A DNA stretch of 64,000 nt from Orbicella franksi (lineage: Eukaryota). Made by a program: the position numbers and the translations under genes. Below, in pieces: positions 12,436 through 20,245 of the stretch. Numbering within the stretch: the first letter of the stretch is position 1; every line of letters starts with the position of its first letter. The stretch spans positions 5,146,001 through 5,210,000 of the forward strand of contig OZ116707.1 in the NCBI GenBank assembly GCA_964199315.1, read 5' to 3'. The notes under the pieces were generated by a model. That model did no database searches. It was not told the origin of the DNA and was given only the letters and a program-made list of their open reading frames with translations.

Positions 12436-13032
12436 TTATTCAAATAACTTTACCCTGTACGGGTGGTGAAGTGAGAACACAAGATAAGAGAACTTTCGCT
12501 CTTTCAGCTTTGAAACCAGACCTTTGTACTCATCCAGGGGGAGCTCGCCGGCATAATCATCGAAGATGGCTTTTGTTGTCCTGGCCAAGGGGGTGTAAAA
12601 GAGGACGATCGCCGCTACGTTCTCCCAGAAGGAAGATATTATGCCGGTCAACTTCTGGGTCAGCGCCCAAACGCTGATGCCCATATGTCGGACAGAAAAG
12701 GCGAGATTCACCAGCTCGCCTGTACGCCCTTTCACATCTTTGGAGGCCGCACAGTCGTCGAGGATTATGAGCGTGTTGGTGCCCTCGGAAAGCCATCTCA
12801 CGAGCTTCAACCACTTTTCCACGGTGTGCTGCTTGCAGACTATCACATCCATTCTTGGATCGTTTTTGCCAAGCCGGTGGTAGGTCTTGTGCGTGAACGT
12901 CGGGCAGATGAGCACGATGTAGTTGAACTTTCCACGGAAAGGGCCGTAGATCTGGTCCACCACGAACCTTGATTTGCCTGAATTTGTTGGCCCCATGATG
13001 AGAGCGTTGAAGGGTATCTTGCTGGGGTCCAT
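12436..13032 (-). CDS. DNA-packaging ATPase, A32/FtsK-HerA superfamily
   Basis: Walker A GPTNSGKS, Walker B LIILDD, arginine-finger RH, then ISVWALTQ. About 198 aa, intact frame, adjacent to the MCP. Confidence 0.92.
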   Translation of the reverse strand: MDPSKIPFNALIMGPTNSGKSRFVVDQIYGPFRGKFNYIVLICPTFTHKTYHRLGKNDPRMDVIVCKQHTVEKWLKLVRWLSEGTNTLIILDDCAASKDVKGRTGELVNLAFSVRHMGISVWALTQKLTGIISSFWENVAAIVLFYTPLARTTKAIFDDYAGELPLDEYKGLVSKLKERKFSYLVFSLHHPYRVKLFE

Positions 13033-13040
13033 GTTCATAT

Positions 13041-14268
13041 TCAATTCTGTACAGAGTCCAGCTGTCTGTCCATAATGTTGAACTGGGAGTCGGCGATGAC
13101 GAATACGTGGCAGTTCATGTTGCCTGAGCCTTCGCTTTCCGCCCGATTTCCAGCTGGACGCTGTCTGTACTGTTCACAAGGCGCTTGCCGCTTCCATGCA
13201 TTTCTTGGTCCGCCATGGAGCGCATATCAATCAGAAGCCCGAAATTGTCTCCGGTGTAAAACTTTGTCGCATCCATGTGCTTGGTTTTATTTTTTTCCTT
13301 CACAAAGAAACGTTGGGCCTCTTCGCACATGTCCTTGCCTTCAATGCCGTTGTTATAAATCATGTTGGGCGGGCCGTTGATCGTGACGCTGACTTTCGTC
13401 AGATCTGGGAAGATGTATTTTTCTGAATCTCTGGCTCCATCGGTATAAGGCTCTATGGAAAGTAGCAGGAGGGCTTTTAGCGACCTTTTTCGGGCGTCGA
13501 CTTTGATGTTCTTCCTCGTGTCGGTGTCTTTTTTGAAGATCACCACTTCGGAACGCATCATGTGGTCATAGGCGAACTCTTTTCCGCTGGAGTATTCGCT
13601 GTACGCCTCGTCCGCCAGAGTCTTGCTGTGGATCATTTCGTACTCGAGCTGGATGTTCGTCAGCTTGTATTTCAGCTGGGTTGTATCAGTTCCAATGACC
13701 ACATGTTCAGCTTCAGCAAGGGTTACTTTGAATACGAGGTCGTTGTAAAGGGCCTGGGGGTAGAAAACACTGTGATCGGTTAGGATCTGATGGTCAAGCC
13801 TGATCCGGTACTTGCTTCCGTACACCTCATTCAGCTTGTTTTCAGCGGCAACGCCCGAGGTTTTCTCGTCTCCTGCGCCTGAGCAGATCTTGCATAGGTC
13901 CTCGCTCTGAATCCCCTCGAGGATCATGCCATCTCGCTTTTCCTGCGAAAGGAAAAGGTCATCAAAGATTCTGTAGATTCCGTAGCCAACCATGTCTTGC
14001 AGGGTAATGCCTCCGAACTTCCTGTGCAGCCTGTCAACGAGCACCCGCGTGACGTTCTGGACAAGGAAGTTGTTGGCGTGCCCTTCAGAAAGGTCAATGT
14101 TAAAGATAAGCGCTAGCAAGCCCGGCACCAGAACCTCGTTCACGTTCAGCTTCGGCACTGAAACATACAGCGTATCACCGGGTTTGGCTTCAGTGCAGGA
14201 AAAGGTGATCCGCTTGACCGTGTGCTCGGCCTGCTGTACGTTGCGCAAAGGTTCTCTGGAACTGACAT
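13041..14268 (-). pseudogene. Major capsid protein (predicted double jelly roll) with two frameshifts
   Basis: Track ORF 13115..14248 is a beta-rich 377-aa core (TLYVSVPKL...VLVPG.LAL.F; LTNIQLEYEMI; LLIDMRSMADQEMHGSGKRLVNS). ATG at 14268 joins via a frameshift, and the C-terminus continues in another frame as GSGNMNCHVFVIADSQFNIMDRQLDSVQN* to 13041. Confidence 0.8.
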
Positions 14269-14328
14269 TGTATAATATGCCGGCGATTATTTCTAATTTG
14301 AAAAATATCAGGTTTGAAATATATCGCT

Positions 14329-15681
14329 ATGTCGGCCGAAGGCAGTGGCGAATTTGGTTACAAAGACCCGGACCTTGACAATCAGCTTGACCATGACTCT
14401 GATGATGGCGAACAAGAGGTCGACACAACCGGTCCTTTTCAGCCAGGCGCGGCATCCACTCCATACCAACCTGGCGACCCCTACCACGGGGGCGAACAAA
14501 CGGAAATGCGTACTATGCTGCACGAGCAGTCTGGCCTGCCTGACACTTCTTATACCAAGACATTTGGGGGAGAAGATATCCCTTTGCTTGAACCTGATCC
14601 GGAACGGAAATTCATCATAGACCGGCTAAAAAGCCAATTTTCCAAATTTAAAGAGAGTAGTTTTGCAGTTATGAAAGGTACCAAAGGGAAAACCAAGGGT
14701 CAAATTGTTGCTGTAGGTATGGGTGGAGGTGAGTACTAGATTATGAAAAAAGACGGGACAGACTTCACGAAAAGTTTTTTAGAAAGGTTTAAAGACAAAC
14801 TTGGGCCTAGAACTTCAGTTGTCATTGAAGAAGACCGGGATACTGTCAGAGAAATGAAACAAAGACTGAAAGAAGCTGAAAACCAACTGCAACAGGCAGA
14901 AACACTCTCTTCGCAAAGAGAAGAAGAAAAGAAAGAAGTTGAAGATCTGAGACGTAAAATCGGGCAAACTGATGCTAAGATCGATGCCATTCAGGATGAA
15001 CAAGGCTCGAAATATCAAACCGATCTCGAAAACAAGAAAAAAGAATTGGATTCACTTACAAAACAAGCAAAAAAACAAGAAAAAGAACAAGCCAAGGTTG
15101 ATAGACTCAGGGCCAGCATTGCTGCAAAAGAAAGTGAAACAAACGCCATGGAAGAAAGGTACAACCAAACAAAACCGTTGGACGCCCTGAGAGAGCAGGA
15201 AAGCGAGCTACAGCACCAAAACAAGGAAGACCAGGTGATCATCCAAGATGAGAATGCCTCGCCCTCCGAAAAAGAAGCCGCAGAAGGCAGAGTGGCAGAA
15301 AGAAACGAGGAGCTCGCGTGTTTGCAAACTCAGATCGTGGAAAGGGAAAGGGGGCGGCCTCTCTTGGAAAGGGTCAAAGAGATCTTCAAAAAATATGGTG
15401 TGACCTTGACTGCTATTCTTCTCGCTGCCGGGACCACAATCGGAGCTGTCATTGGGGTCCTCACCAGAGGTTTGAAAGCCACCGGCAAAGCTTTGGGGAA
15501 TGGCCTCAAAGATATTGCCGTGAAACTCGGTTCTCTGCTGCCCAGGCTGATTGGCTCGATCGTGAGCTTCCTGTTCAAAGCCGCCAGCCAAGTCGTCAGA
15601 TTTCTGGCCGAGCACACCTGGCTGCTTATTCTTGCCGCAGTGGCATTTTTGTTCAAACAATATTTTAAGAAGCAGCGTTAA
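14329..15681 (+). pseudogene. Coiled-coil protein with C-terminal amphipathic/TM helices; one gene split by a premature TAG
   Basis: Track ORFs 14314..14739 and 14743..15681 are in the same frame (GGGEY*IMKKDG). C-terminus GVTLTAILLAAGTTIGAVIGVL...LIGSIVSFLF...WLLILAAVAFLF. Confidence 0.75.
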
Positions 15682-15682
15682 C

Positions 15683-17330
15683 TTACTGCCAAGCCATGAA
15701 CAGCAACGCCGATAATCCAACTACACCGACAATTACCACCGTTTTGTTAATTTTGTGTTGCGGTGTTTTATCTGGAGCCGTGGGCTCAATTTTTTTGCGC
15801 CGTTGGCTGTGCTTGTTTAGTTTCAGTCGAAGCTGGTTTCCTTGATTCGGCTGTTGCGGCTTTGTGTATCGGGTTGGACGGGTGGCTGTTGGGTAGGTTG
15901 ACTTTTGACGGGCCACCTGCCATGAGTTTGAGCCCAGATTTTTTTGTGTCTGGGTGTATCTTGTTGTTCACCCCCAGTTTCATCCCAGACACCGCCTGTT
16001 TCAGCTTGTTGTTGTAACCGATCGTGCTTGCAGTGTTGATAATCATTTGTGCGGGCATGAGCCAGGACATGGGGGCTACAGCGAGATTGAGCCTGACTTT
16101 CGCTTGGTCCACCGCGAGCTGGTACCTTTGCATGCTCGCGGCCAGGTCGGGCTGTGTGATCGTGCTTTCCATCAACACCAAGAACTCGCTCTGGGCTTCT
16201 CTTGCTCGACCACCAGAACTGAGAATGCTGCTGCAGACGTTGACTTGCGCGCCTAGGACACAGTAAACGAAAGCCTCGATTGACTGGTTGATTCTCGACA
16301 AGCCCGTCTGCGTCAAACCGTTCGCGGTGTTGGGTGCAAACCAGTTGAACTGCCGATCTCCAAAAACATCAGGCCGTATGAACTCAATAAGGTCCCCCTT
16401 AATCAGTTTTCCACCTTCGTCGCTGAACTTGTTCCAATCAGGATACTTGTAATCTGTTTTTGTTGGCGATTGCCCCCAAGGCTTAACATACAACACCCCC
16501 AAACCACTATTTGCGCCCGAAGTAAACCTAAAGTCGCTTGAGGGGTCTATTCGGAATTCGCCGCATATCCTTTTGTACGAAGCGATGTCGTAATGATTAT
16601 TCATCTGGTCGAACGTCAGGTCTCTGGGCAAAGCACTTATGCTCTGAACACCTTCTAGCTGGTACAAAATGCACCTGACCGTGAAATACACGTGGAAGAT
16701 ATAGAAAGCTCTTATCTGCGGGGGGAGATTCATCCCACTGTCAAAGATTTCGCGAGAAACTCCACACCCCTGTGTCATGCAGAAAACCGCAAAGTTGAGC
16801 TGTTGTGGCCAATATTTCATGTCAGGCCCTCCTAACCAGTGTTTTGATTCGGTTCCAGATGTGCGTTTGAGTTTGGTGTCTTGAAATATTTCTTGGAATT
16901 TTGTTGTGAAATATTGGTCGGGCGTGATGTATATTTGGATTGCATCGTCGAATATTTTCTTCAAGCTTGGCGCTTTGCCGTCGAAAGGTACCACAGGGAT
17001 GGCCAATGAAACTTTTGAACCAAGTGGCGACAGCTGGTAAGGAAAACCACCGCTGTCTCCCAAACTGAGCTCTTTCATTTCGGCGCTCCAATATTTCCTG
17101 TCTGAGCTGAAGACGCTTTGAAACGCATCTTTGCTTTCTTCGAAAAACACCTCGGCAGTTACATTTTTTTCACGGTCAATCATTGCTTGTGAAATGAACC
17201 TGCTTTTGTCCGCTTTTGGAAAGCGGTTTAAAAAGTTTGTCCACGCCTTTTTCTTCATAGCATCTTTTTTCAAAAACTGGGGATCATCAAACCCGGGATC
17301 TTGACAGATATCGTTCCACATATTTGCCAT
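15683..17330 (-). pseudogene. Large (~550 aa) uncharacterised viral protein with C-terminal membrane anchor, frameshifted in a homopolymer
   Basis: Track ORF 15786..17345 (first ATG 17330; WPQQLNFAVFC, FHVYFTVRCIL) ends at a T-run near 15790. The overlapping ORF 15683..15916 supplies TVVIVGVVGLSALLFMAWQ*. Confidence 0.7.
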
Positions 17331-17365
17331 ATTATTTGGACACAATTTTATTTGTTGAATATAAA

Positions 17366-18046
17366 ATGGTTGTTCTCACTATTGTCACACAACAGAACGG
17401 AGGAACAATATATTTTGAAAAACCAATACCGAAAGTGCATTTCATGAAACTCATTTCTTGCAGTTTGTACAACAGCTGGGACACTTTGAAAAAAGAAGGT
17501 TCGGCCACCCTGGGAGTTAAAAACAAAGATAAAGCTTTATCAGTTAGTAAATTACTCCCAGGGCATTATAGTTTAGAAAGATTGTCAAAAGAAATAGACG
17601 GTCTGTTCGCCAAATATCAATATAAAGAGTTGCAAACAGCAATAAACCAACCTGTTGGCCAGCTTGTAATCAGAAATTTTGGGGCTGGGGCAAAACCAAT
17701 TGAACTTGATCGCGATTTAGCCGATTTGCTTGGTATTGGGCAAAAGTGGTTGCCTATAACCTTTGTAAAACGGCTTACAGCTCCAACGACATATTTTATT
17801 CATTGTAATTTGATCGACAAACAAAAGAATCTGTTCAATGACAAAAGGTCAGATGTATTAGCCTTGTTTGATGTCAAAGTGGAGCCTTATGAAAAAGTAA
17901 GCTATCAGGCTTCTCGGCAACAGGTTTTGCGAGACTGCTCTACAGGCGAGTCCGTAAATAGCATCACCATTAGCGTCAAAGATGAAGATGGTGAACTCTT
18001 TGATTTCAAGGGTTTCCCACTTCTTTTTGAATTAGAGTTAAATTAA
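17366..18046 (+). CDS. Minor capsid protein / penton (single jelly roll)
   Basis: C-terminal pattern YFIHCNLID...SDVLALFDV...VNSITISVKDEDGELFDFKGFPLLFELEL is typical of Polinton/PLV pentons. ATG preceded by GAATATAAA. Frame intact. Confidence 0.8.
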   Translation: MVVLTIVTQQNGGTIYFEKPIPKVHFMKLISCSLYNSWDTLKKEGSATLGVKNKDKALSVSKLLPGHYSLERLSKEIDGLFAKYQYKELQTAINQPVGQLVIRNFGAGAKPIELDRDLADLLGIGQKWLPITFVKRLTAPTTYFIHCNLIDKQKNLFNDKRSDVLALFDVKVEPYEKVSYQASRQQVLRDCSTGESVNSITISVKDEDGELFDFKGFPLLFELELN

Positions 18047-18063
18047 ATTTCTTTATATACGCA

Positions 18064-18657
18064 ATGTCTTCGGCAAATCTGTTGCCACCAAGCGCGCCGC
18101 CTGCCAAGCCACTATATCCAGTGGTGGCGGAGCCTTCTCAAAATTTCCACTTGCAGAAGGTCAATGAGATTTCCAACACTTTAGCCGGTGAGGTCCACCA
18201 CTATCGCCTTGTTGGCAAAAAATACAAACACGCGAGGAAGTTTGTTAATTGGGGTGCTGCCGGCTCAAGTATTCTCTTGGCAGCGTTTTCCAGCACGAGT
18301 TTTGGCTCCGCTCTGTCTGTGGTTGGCCTGCCAGCTGCAGTTCCTCTTGGCGGCGCTGCTGGATGCTTCGCTCTCATTTCGTCGGGGCTGATAATCGCCA
18401 GCAAAAAGTTCGACTCGAAAATAAAGAAGCGTCAAGAGATCACCACGCTCGCCGTTGCCAAGCGGGACACCGTCAACAGACTTCTCTCAAACGCTTTGAA
18501 CAACAACGCGGTGTCTTCGCATAAGTTCGACACCATCCTTTCTGAGTTTCAACAATACAACTTTCTGAAAGATCAGGTCCGTGCAAGGATGCTTCGCCAG
18601 CCATCAACGAGAAAGCTTCCTGATGTTGATGTCCAGAAACTGGAAACTGGAGAATGA
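18064..18657 (+). CDS. Viral membrane protein with Gly/Ala-rich hydrophobic hairpin between helical regions
   Basis: FHLQKVNEI..., then GAAGSSILLAAFSSTSFGSALSVVGLPAAVPLGGAAGCFALISSGLII, then KK.QEITTLAVAKRDTV..LLSNAL. ATG preceded by TTTATATACGCA. Confidence 0.7.
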   Translation: MSSANLLPPSAPPAKPLYPVVAEPSQNFHLQKVNEISNTLAGEVHHYRLVGKKYKHARKFVNWGAAGSSILLAAFSSTSFGSALSVVGLPAAVPLGGAAGCFALISSGLIIASKKFDSKIKKRQEITTLAVAKRDTVNRLLSNALNNNAVSSHKFDTILSEFQQYNFLKDQVRARMLRQPSTRKLPDVDVQKLETGE

Positions 18658-18754
18658 GTTGAAGTTGAAGCGGAAATGATAAAAAAAATAACAGCAACCC
18701 CCGCTTCGAACTAAGTTTTAGAAACAGACGGTTTCATTTGCACGTAATATGAAC

Positions 18755-18898
18755 ATGATTGTCTGCTTCCACTTGTTTGCGTTTCTTGTGAATGAATATT
18801 TCACACCTGAGTGGCAAAAAGAGGCACGCGATATTATGCATGAAGTCGTCGCTGCGATGGTTGAGGCACAAGCCCAATGGTTAAGTGCGGCCAGTTAG
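18755..18898 (+). CDS. Small viral ORF (47 aa), below the track threshold
   Basis: MIVCFHLFAFLVNEYFTPEWQKEARDIMHEVVAAMVEAQAQWLSAAS*, preceded by TAATATGAAC. A decayed paralog lies at ~19255-19330. Confidence 0.5.
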   Translation: MIVCFHLFAFLVNEYFTPEWQKEARDIMHEVVAAMVEAQAQWLSAAS

Positions 18899-18926
18899 AA
18901 AGTGGCCGCTTTTGATATGTAACATC

Positions 18927-19219
18927 ATGGAGAACCATCCGTGGAAAAGTCCTGCAAGTATCGAGGCAGAAAAAAATGGAAAGAACTTCAACAAGACTTT
19001 GAAGAAGTGAATAAATCAAAGCAAATTTATGAAAAAGAAAAAGAGTTTTTTGAAAAATTCTTCCGAATTATCCGATTTGGCAGTGGGATAAAAGAAGAGC
19101 ATAAAAAAGAACTGATTTTGAGAATAAAGTCTGATTTACAAGAAAAGTTGGAAACATTTCAGTCAAAGCAGCGTAAATACGAGAAAAGTGTTCCATCTTT
19201 TAGAGTCTTTAGCTATTGA
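18927..19219 (+). pseudogene. Lys/Glu-rich small viral ORF, probably frameshifted at the 5' end
   Basis: ATG at 18927 (after GATATGTAACATC) is out of frame with the track ORF 18941..19219, which lacks an ATG. Confidence 0.4.
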
Positions 19220-19325
19220 GTTGTTGAGATATTGGGAATTGTTTTTGCAGATGGTGTACCACGCCTGAGTGCCAAAAATAGGCTCGCGAAGTCGTTGCAG
19301 CAATGGTTGAGGCGGGTGAGGTTTT

Positions 19326-19717
19326 TTAATAATAACGCTCCCCGCCAAAAAGGAACCACTCGTGCCAGTCATAACTGTCCCAGGAGCATACTTTTAAAAA
19401 ATTCTTGTACTCAGGGCTGGCTTCAACAAGAGGTATTATCGGCTGTCTTAGCGTTGCTTTATGAACAGTTCCCTCCTTTTCGAAACAGGGGAAACAGCAC
19501 TCCTCGAAATAACAGTCCGGATATTCGAAACAAATAACCATCGGCACAATCTGCTGCTTGAATGCGCAGAATGGCAGTTTTAGAATATTCTCGTGTAACT
19601 TGCCCCACCCCATTTCGTTTTTTTCCTTAATTTTATCGTGATGTACTCCTTGAGAATCATCTCACGAAGCTCTTGAGGGAGATTTTGGATGGCCTCAGAA
19701 AGTCCGCCGGCAGCCAT
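19326..19717 (-). pseudogene. F-box-like viral protein, frameshifted in a T-run at ~19618-19625
   Basis: From ATG 19717: MAAGGLSEAIQNLPQELREMILKEYITIKLRKK, joining track ORF 19326..19613 (MGWGKLHENILKLPFC...). LPxELxxxIL is the F-box signature. Confidence 0.55.
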
Positions 19718-19942
19718 GTCGGCATATACACTGTGCATATACTTGTTCAATACGAAAATTTTTCAGGTGCACTTTTGAATAAACTATTGATTACGGACGT
19801 TGCAGCTTTGCTGGACCCACTATTTCGCCATTTTTTACTGCTGCGCTGTTGTGTTACATACACACACCGTTCTGGCGCAGCGTTCATGCAGCACACTGTG
19901 TCCTTGTCGAAAATTTGGTTTCAACAACTGCCGTTCTTGCAC

Positions 19943-20084
19943 ACACACATATATAGTGGGGGTTCTGGTCATAAGCGAACGCACACAGTGCAAGCGCAGA
20001 GCAACTCCGAATCTTCAGATGAGGAGTTGTGCTTGCGCTTGCACTGTGCGGAGCGCTGCACCAGAACCCCCACTATATGTGTGT
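19943..20084. repeat. ~142-nt imperfect palindrome / terminal hairpin of the viral element
   Basis: Perfect stems at 19951-19969/20060-20078 (19 bp), 19984-19998/20034-20048 (15 bp) and 20002-20008/20023-20029 (7 bp), with apex atc-ttca-gat and mismatch bubbles between stems. Confidence 0.9.
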
Positions 20085-20085
20085 A

Positions 20086-20245
20086 ATCAGATAGCCTACG
20101 AATCATCGGGCAGCTGCCAAAGATCATGAGCTTTGTCTTTTCAGGGTTGAGCAGAAGACAATTATCAAAACACCAGTTAGAAATTAGATGTAAATCCTTT
20201 TGGATAGTGTCCTTTGCTTCGTCAGCGTCACCAACTTTGAAAGAC
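20086..20245 (-). pseudogene. LINE (CR1/L2-like) reverse transcriptase fragment
   Basis: IQKDLHLISNWCFDNCLLLNPEKTKLMIFG matches the non-LTR RT motif DL..I..W...N.L.LN..KT..M.F. Confidence 0.8.

Follow-up and report, generated by a model that had tools for sequence, protein, structure and literature searches.

The window analysed here, a stretch of 64,000 nucleotides of the Orbicella franksi genome, contains a 9.7-kb Polinton remnant inserted in a LINE (Table 1). The named homologues are coral sequences, in keeping with a stony coral as the host. For the likely major capsid protein, the Atlas neighbours (0.97) belong to Capsid_N/DJR-like clusters, with low recognition, and Capsid_N matches two of nine homologues with E 0.01; the single-sequence model has pLDDT 29, and comparisons with PDB and with profiles gave no match. 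The terminal inverted repeats (TIRs) hold the start codons of the polymerase and, at the other end of the element, of a frame of ~148 aa (L034:6156-6644; 19326-19661 in the window). This frame has no Pfam match, and we take its LPPELREMIL stretch to resemble an F-box. Unrelated host repeats lie elsewhere in the window (25739-28824, 34769-35557, 47294-47688 and 45759-46418): a three-copy family of ~800 nt, an inverted repeat that resembles a MITE, and a tract of tandem repeats.

Table 1. Features of the Polinton remnant and its right border (positions in the window)
Feature	Position	Strand	Remarks
Left-truncated Polinton copy	10399..20084		left end, polymerase and integrase missing
A32-like packaging ATPase frame	12436..13173	-	PF04665, E 3.5e-6, over cut-off
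Likely major capsid protein, conserved family of ~416 aa	13115..14326	-	putative double jelly-roll fold
Conserved 529-aa frame of the element	15786..17375	-	no family match
Conserved frame, candidate minor capsid protein	17261..18046	+	from position and size only; no Pfam match
Terminal inverted repeat of the element	19708..20084	-	matches both ends of complete copies
Terminal fold-back palindrome	19943..20084		element tip is the end of the outer arm (5'-ACACAC on the minus strand)
Outer bubble, inner-arm side: extra base and mismatches	19970..19984	+	fixed polarity of the difference from the outer arm
Apex: tandem GA (20009-10) opposite GA (20021-22), 3-bp stem, TTCA loop	20004..20027	+	inverted in 4/54 sites
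Host LINE reverse-transcriptase fragment, the insertion target	20085..20260	-	matches to other LINE copies

The remnant ends on the right in a 142-nt palindrome, which a sequence-only reading had described as stems of 19, 15 and 7 bp with a 3-bp apex and a 4-nt loop, placed exactly at the boundary between virus and host. Both parts of this description are borne out. The palindrome is an imperfect series of stems in which the outer one pairs 19951-19969 with 20060-20078, followed inwards by the 15-bp and 7-bp stems and the apex, and its predicted DNA fold reaches -56.9 kcal/mol compared with -20.4 +/- 2.9 in 200 shuffles, none of which equalled it (z -12.4). The opposite strand folds with -56.3 kcal/mol, so that the energy model gives no strand preference. 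The LINE fragment that follows directly matches three other copies at 95-97%, and since these copies run unbroken across the junction, within the reverse-transcriptase frame, the right edge of the palindrome is the insertion border. At the foot of the inner arm lies a (GT)n run (19935-19948), which counts 3 to 26 units among the AC-type ends and is possibly a slippage zone.

In a search of the same genome, 40 of 63 candidates were scored. Thirty of these places pair up in inverted orientation at distances of 7-23 kb, and in the resulting 15 pairs the palindrome makes up the outermost ~145 nt of TIRs of ~400-540 nt at both element ends. An orientation-neutral apex pattern has 54 sites in the genome and none in its reversed control; all 54 were inspected and are element tips, each lying between element sequence and host DNA. 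The expectation that the hairpin occurs only at element ends, and at both ends of complete copies, has thus held. Target duplications are perfect in 31 of 34 end pairs from four subfamilies (5 bp in 23, 6 bp in 6 and 7 bp in 2), although a few of the pairs are segmental duplicates and the longer matches may be chance extensions. Near-identical copies at both ends of contig C15 and at C45:114572-144642 suggest assembly breaks or duplications inside elements. Three elements among the 15 pairs carry longer inverted duplications. Snap-back-like inverted duplications of one half, 4-8 kb in length, were seen at L035-L038, L053-L054, L061-L062 and L280-L281; one of these elements belongs to a hairpin-free group, so such duplications are not specific to the hairpin.

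Complete copies are Polintons/Mavericks of ~15 kb whose genes include those for an rve integrase, an A32 ATPase and a protein-primed family B polymerase (pPolB) that carries an Endonuclease VII insertion. PF03175 is over the cut-off in one of the four N-terminal or central polymerase frames matched or scanned, PF04665 is over the cut-off for the ATPase, and PF00665 matches the integrase with E 4e-7 and 3e-6, slightly below the curated cut-off. The Endonuclease VII domain inserted in the AC-type polymerase is also over the cut-off, and its DHxH motif, presumably catalytic, is found in 24 of 25 polymerase homologues. A model of a 781-aa natural N-terminal polymerase frame (pLDDT 77) contains a sheet-and-two-helix domain, whose top PDB matches, at E about 0.01 with none under 0.001, are little-finger domains of the Y family and whose top viral fold matches are polymerases labelled as adintovirus and densovirus. 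According to the consulted text of PMC11161782, a little-finger-like fold of this sort is the terminal protein; its linking residue, a Ser or Tyr, precedes the last strand, and a vOTU protease comes next in the chain. The terminal-protein Ser is present in 24 of 25 aligned polymerases and the vOTU Cys and His in all 25; the polymerase thus keeps the terminal-protein and vOTU residues and is predicted to have the terminal-protein fold.

The sequence-only reading had predicted a replication or resolution enzyme other than pPolB, a prediction that the complete copies do not support. No Pfam match at E 0.001 to HUH, SF3 helicase, primase, protelomerase or tyrosine-recombinase families was found in 70 frames taken from three copies, two of them complete and one covered over its capsid-side 10 kb; several of these frames have no family. 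An adenovirus-like protease has no match in these frames or in the genome, with a profile that is silent on the controls too. The element is assigned to the Polintons on the basis of a pPolB with terminal-protein and vOTU residues, the rve integrase, the ATPase and the TIRs, which have short tandem tip repeats and target duplications within the expected 5-8 bp.

Of 20 integrase loci, drawn from the 121 that were scored among 703 integrase candidates, 16 have the full hairpin at the expected end, one has half of it, one has a newly formed palindrome and two have lost the tip. Four subfamilies were distinguished that differ in hairpin sequence and use two unrelated polymerases, with the integrase, the capsid module and the GA/GA apex in common; beyond the first AC-tipped subfamily these comprise two AC-tipped ones with ~184-nt hairpins of different inner sequence and one AGTAGT-tipped. 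The integrase and capsid module of the AGT family are 83-93% alike in nucleotides to those of the AC type, and the polymerases share 22-30% of amino acids in local matches. Because the AGT family has the hairpin and its polymerase lacks a Pfam match to Endonuclease VII, a link of the hairpin to the polymerase with that domain was rejected. The first 200 nt of the 99 top-scoring ends of the four subfamilies fold with -52 to -113 kcal/mol, compared with -10 to -22 kcal/mol at seven ends from Polintons of this genome outside the four subfamilies, none of which has the hairpin. The hairpin is therefore a lineage trait that crosses a polymerase swap. One chimeric element (C6:15817801-15832725; L088-L089, L131) has hairpins of two kinds, AGT-type at its left end and AC-type at its right, and its flanks are alike in four of five bases. 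The hairpin-free groups (L280-L319) have AGTAGT tips and many long open polymerase frames, and CCAAT-like boxes are present in the TIR of one of them.

Related sequences were also sought in metagenomes and reads. Among 80 contigs kept of 384, 19 extend at least 3.5 kb past the integrase, and 13 of these have a hairpin of ~110-190 nt (two are identical and one is cut by the contig end); of the other six, four stop less than 400 nt from the polymerase start, one has a truncated polymerase and one has no hairpin in 500 nt. Scans of viral contigs gave one polymerase contig of 4.3 kb and no relative of the integrase. Many related contigs were found in three runs, and the joints listed include none that is informative at the hairpin. 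A poly(A) run from a related host gave 33 reads, all off-target, and so showed no expression, which speaks neither for nor against activity. No free genome, fold-back read or replication intermediate occurs among these contigs and reads.

The two arms of the palindrome differ in a constant manner. Tandem GA opposite GA beside the loop, on the strand that carries the 3' end, is present at 84 of 99 ends, and the polarity of the bubble between outer and inner arm is kept in 29/30, 16/20, 15/19 and 29/30 ends of the four subfamilies. In the three AC subfamilies it is the inner arm that has an extra base ~26 nt from the end (29/30, 16/20 and 15/19 ends), the exceptions being one swap, one erasure and otherwise unclear cases. 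The polarity is not absolute, as the bulge is swapped at one end and erased at several; of the 54 apex sites, two have lost the outer bubble. Flip/flop variants of the bubbles had been anticipated, and here the outcome is divided: inversion of the whole hairpin was seen at none of the 54 apex sites and none of the 99 flank-oriented ends, all integrated, so that selection at integration could hide isomers, and inversion of the apex alone was found at four of the 54. These four are both ends of one element, the left end of a second and a duplicate of the latter. Elsewhere it occurs in 1/20 and 1/19 of the longer AC-type ends and in 0/30 AGT ends, in sets with a bias against inverted forms. The element whose two apices are inverted keeps an intact 5-bp duplication, which suggests that the inverted form was carried by a free genome. 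Obligate whole flip/flop was not seen (0/54), and the spectrum of isomers would rather fit template switching between the arms with selection for one polarity. At one left tip (L090:4098-4341 with L192:7691-7872), ten normal bases lead into a palindrome of 236 nt, new and almost perfect, that consists of sub-terminal DNA, and the 5-bp duplication is intact.

Covariation between the arms and its timing were assessed in the same collection. Among 26 copies, 15 of 63 pairs changed on both sides compared with 6.7 in shuffles, and none of 500 shuffles was as high, although the count is inflated by relatedness of the copies and does not represent independent events. Distinct variants common to both ends of an insertion were taken as older than the insertion; in 30 elements, 42 of these are double and preserve pairing and nine are single (n=51). 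Differences between the left and right ends of the same insertion, in 32 pairs, are three double and 83 single (n=86). Given these opposite ratios, arm matching occurs while the element is mobile and not in the chromosome, and a correction of integrated palindromes by the host was rejected on the left-right differences.

The palindrome, known here from integrated copies, is likely a working end of the genome during copying; that it is the fold-back telomere of a free protein-primed genome is the reading we favour tentatively, at somewhat less than an even chance. The observations behind it are the position at both tips, the covariation that precedes insertion, the fixed polarity, the GA/GA apex on the 3'-terminal strand and the terminal-protein and vOTU residues; the enzymatic steps are all inferred. 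In such a scheme, pPolB would be primed by protein at the (AC)n or (AGT)n tip and, as it copies, displace a strand, whose 3' end would fold into a stem of ~70-90 bp with the 3' base paired and be extended, giving a hairpin-closed or dimer intermediate. The extra base ~26 nt from the end could leave only the outer arm active as an origin or integrase end, so that ends would be restored in one polarity, and occasional template switches between the perfect inner stems would account for inverted apices, for lost bubbles and for changes carried from one arm to the other. Sheared GA pairs are stable, and the proposed preference for the 3' strand rests on this property because both strands fold equally in the energy model. 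It is possible, if rather doubtful, that the element combines protein priming at the tip with self-priming from the 3' hairpin and asymmetric resolution of dimer junctions, a mode of replication not known to have been described for any double jelly-roll virus, and that the same palindrome, as a cruciform at the host border, could give Polintons a route out of the chromosome.

Against a fold-back telomere stands the fact that the hairpin follows the integrase/capsid module over the polymerase swap, a pattern no less expected of an integrase or packaging signal than of a primer. A hairpin or cruciform recognised by the integrase or the packaging machinery, with ordinary protein-primed strand displacement and arms matched by template switching and selection on shape, is the main rival for this reason and because the mismatches of the vaccinia telomere serve virion maturation and not DNA synthesis (PMC8956199). 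The sharing of hairpin and GA/GA apex by families with the same integrase/capsid module and unrelated polymerases, the chimera with its four duplicated flank bases of five, and the tie between palindromes and particular rve integrases in the consulted part of the Halocafeteria preprint (10.64898/2026.07.28.741278) all point the same way. However, the sequences of arms and tips are wholly different between the two polymerase types, and a stem of 25 bp, perfect and paired up to the terminal base, would suit a primer and be unneeded for a binding site; we regard a signal as unlikely, though a serious contender.

Poxvirus-like, covalently closed hairpin ends, with cruciform dimer junctions cut by Endonuclease VII and one isomer integrating, would account for the Endonuclease VII domain with its widely kept DHxH motif and for the apex isomers, and a cruciform would place a four-way junction exactly at the host border. 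This is improbable in view of the absence of whole inversions among the integrated ends and the retention of terminal-protein and vOTU residues; moreover, the AGT family has hairpins without an Endonuclease VII match, and nuclease insertions are common in Polinton polymerases according to the text available from PMC10748475 and PMC11161782. A functionless palindrome, which template switching would leave at linear ends without harm to the element and the same error would renew, is likewise improbable: arm-to-arm copying would work without selection, the 236-nt palindrome did arise anew at one end, and accidental annealing is named as an alternative in the consulted part of the Halocafeteria preprint, but copying alone would erase bulges, and subfamilies with little similarity in their stems still share the 1-nt bulge and the GA/GA apex, while other Polinton groups of the same genome have no palindrome. 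Many small inverted-repeat elements exist in the genome, yet a dispersed host MITE lying at the border by chance can be set aside almost entirely, since every apex site is flanked by element and host and the target duplication encloses the whole element rather than the palindrome; no stand-alone copies with their own target duplication were present among the sites examined, in agreement with the sequence-only reading.

The proposed fold-back telomere can be compared with several known systems. Polintons/Mavericks (Polintoviricetes) of stony corals (PMC11131425) and vertebrates (PMC8097293) share pPolB, the rve integrase, the A32 ATPase, a length of ~15 kb, TIRs of 400-540 nt, (AC)n or (AGT)2 tips and target duplication; the elements described here differ in a fold-back of 100-190 nt at each tip, in a duplication of mostly 5 bp instead of 6 bp, and in that no protease was detected, with a profile silent on controls. 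The words hairpin and palindrome do not occur in the main text of either paper. The virophages of Halocafeteria seosinensis and PLV subtype 4, as presented in the consulted part of 10.64898/2026.07.28.741278, also have palindromes in the TIR next to target duplications, tied to particular rve integrases, and hairpin priming is proposed for them; however, those palindromes measure 52 nt in the subtype drawn and occur preferentially with non-pPolB genes in a protist, whereas ours measure 100-190 nt and are found in an animal alongside two types of pPolB; covariation, a fixed polarity and apex isomers are also shown here. The telomeres of Streptomyces linear replicons combine a terminal protein with 3' fold-back palindromes containing G:A pairs, and the folded 3' end is extendable in vitro (PMC4513846, relevant sections), but they consist of several short palindromes and depend on an internal origin and the Tap/Tpg proteins; no homology is claimed. 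The left-end hairpin of autonomous parvoviruses (MVM, LuIII) has a one-base spacer difference between arms with one polarity kept, and in the MVM dimer bridge the GA/GAA spacer leaves one arm active (PMC1185569, relevant sections), but this hairpin depends on NS1, an HUH nickase, and on a genome of single-stranded DNA, and no HUH family was found here in the 70 frames. The flip/flop telomeres of poxviruses, which belong to the A32 ATPase lineage, are imperfect stems with conserved mismatches as well (PMC8956199), yet their ends are closed and their whole hairpins invert, an inversion absent from the integrated ends studied here.

In literature searches, which had supplements and Repbase (where these ends may already be recorded) outside their scope, terminal palindromes were met only in the Halocafeteria preprint of July 2026 (10.64898/2026.07.28.741278), whose consulted part describes them next to target duplications in virophages of protists and in a single PLV subtype, the majority lacking pPolB. 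A hairpin or palindrome of the DNA end was not found in the available text of PMC11131425, PMC8097293, PMC10748475, PMC8502044, PMC11161782 and 10.64898/2026.06.19.733378. As far as their available text goes, 10.64898/2026.10.13.758929 labels a palindromic repeat in a legend only, PMC11296320 mentions poxvirus hairpins, and the hairpins of 10.1101/2022.05.25.493380 are protein hairpins. New in the present work are the animal pPolB lineage, the timing of covariation, the fixed polarity, the apex shared across two polymerases, the apex isomers and the negative control within the same genome. A hairpin that works as a genome end in copying, as seems likely here, is unexpected for elements with a protein-primed polymerase, and the lineage shows that terminal palindromes are not restricted to elements without pPolB. 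To our knowledge, the exit of Polintons from the chromosome, the copying of their ends and the handover to the integrase have so far been a model without experiments. The covarying polar hairpin, together with the hairpin-free sister groups in the same genome, offers a short substrate for the study of end priming, integrase binding and excision in vitro.
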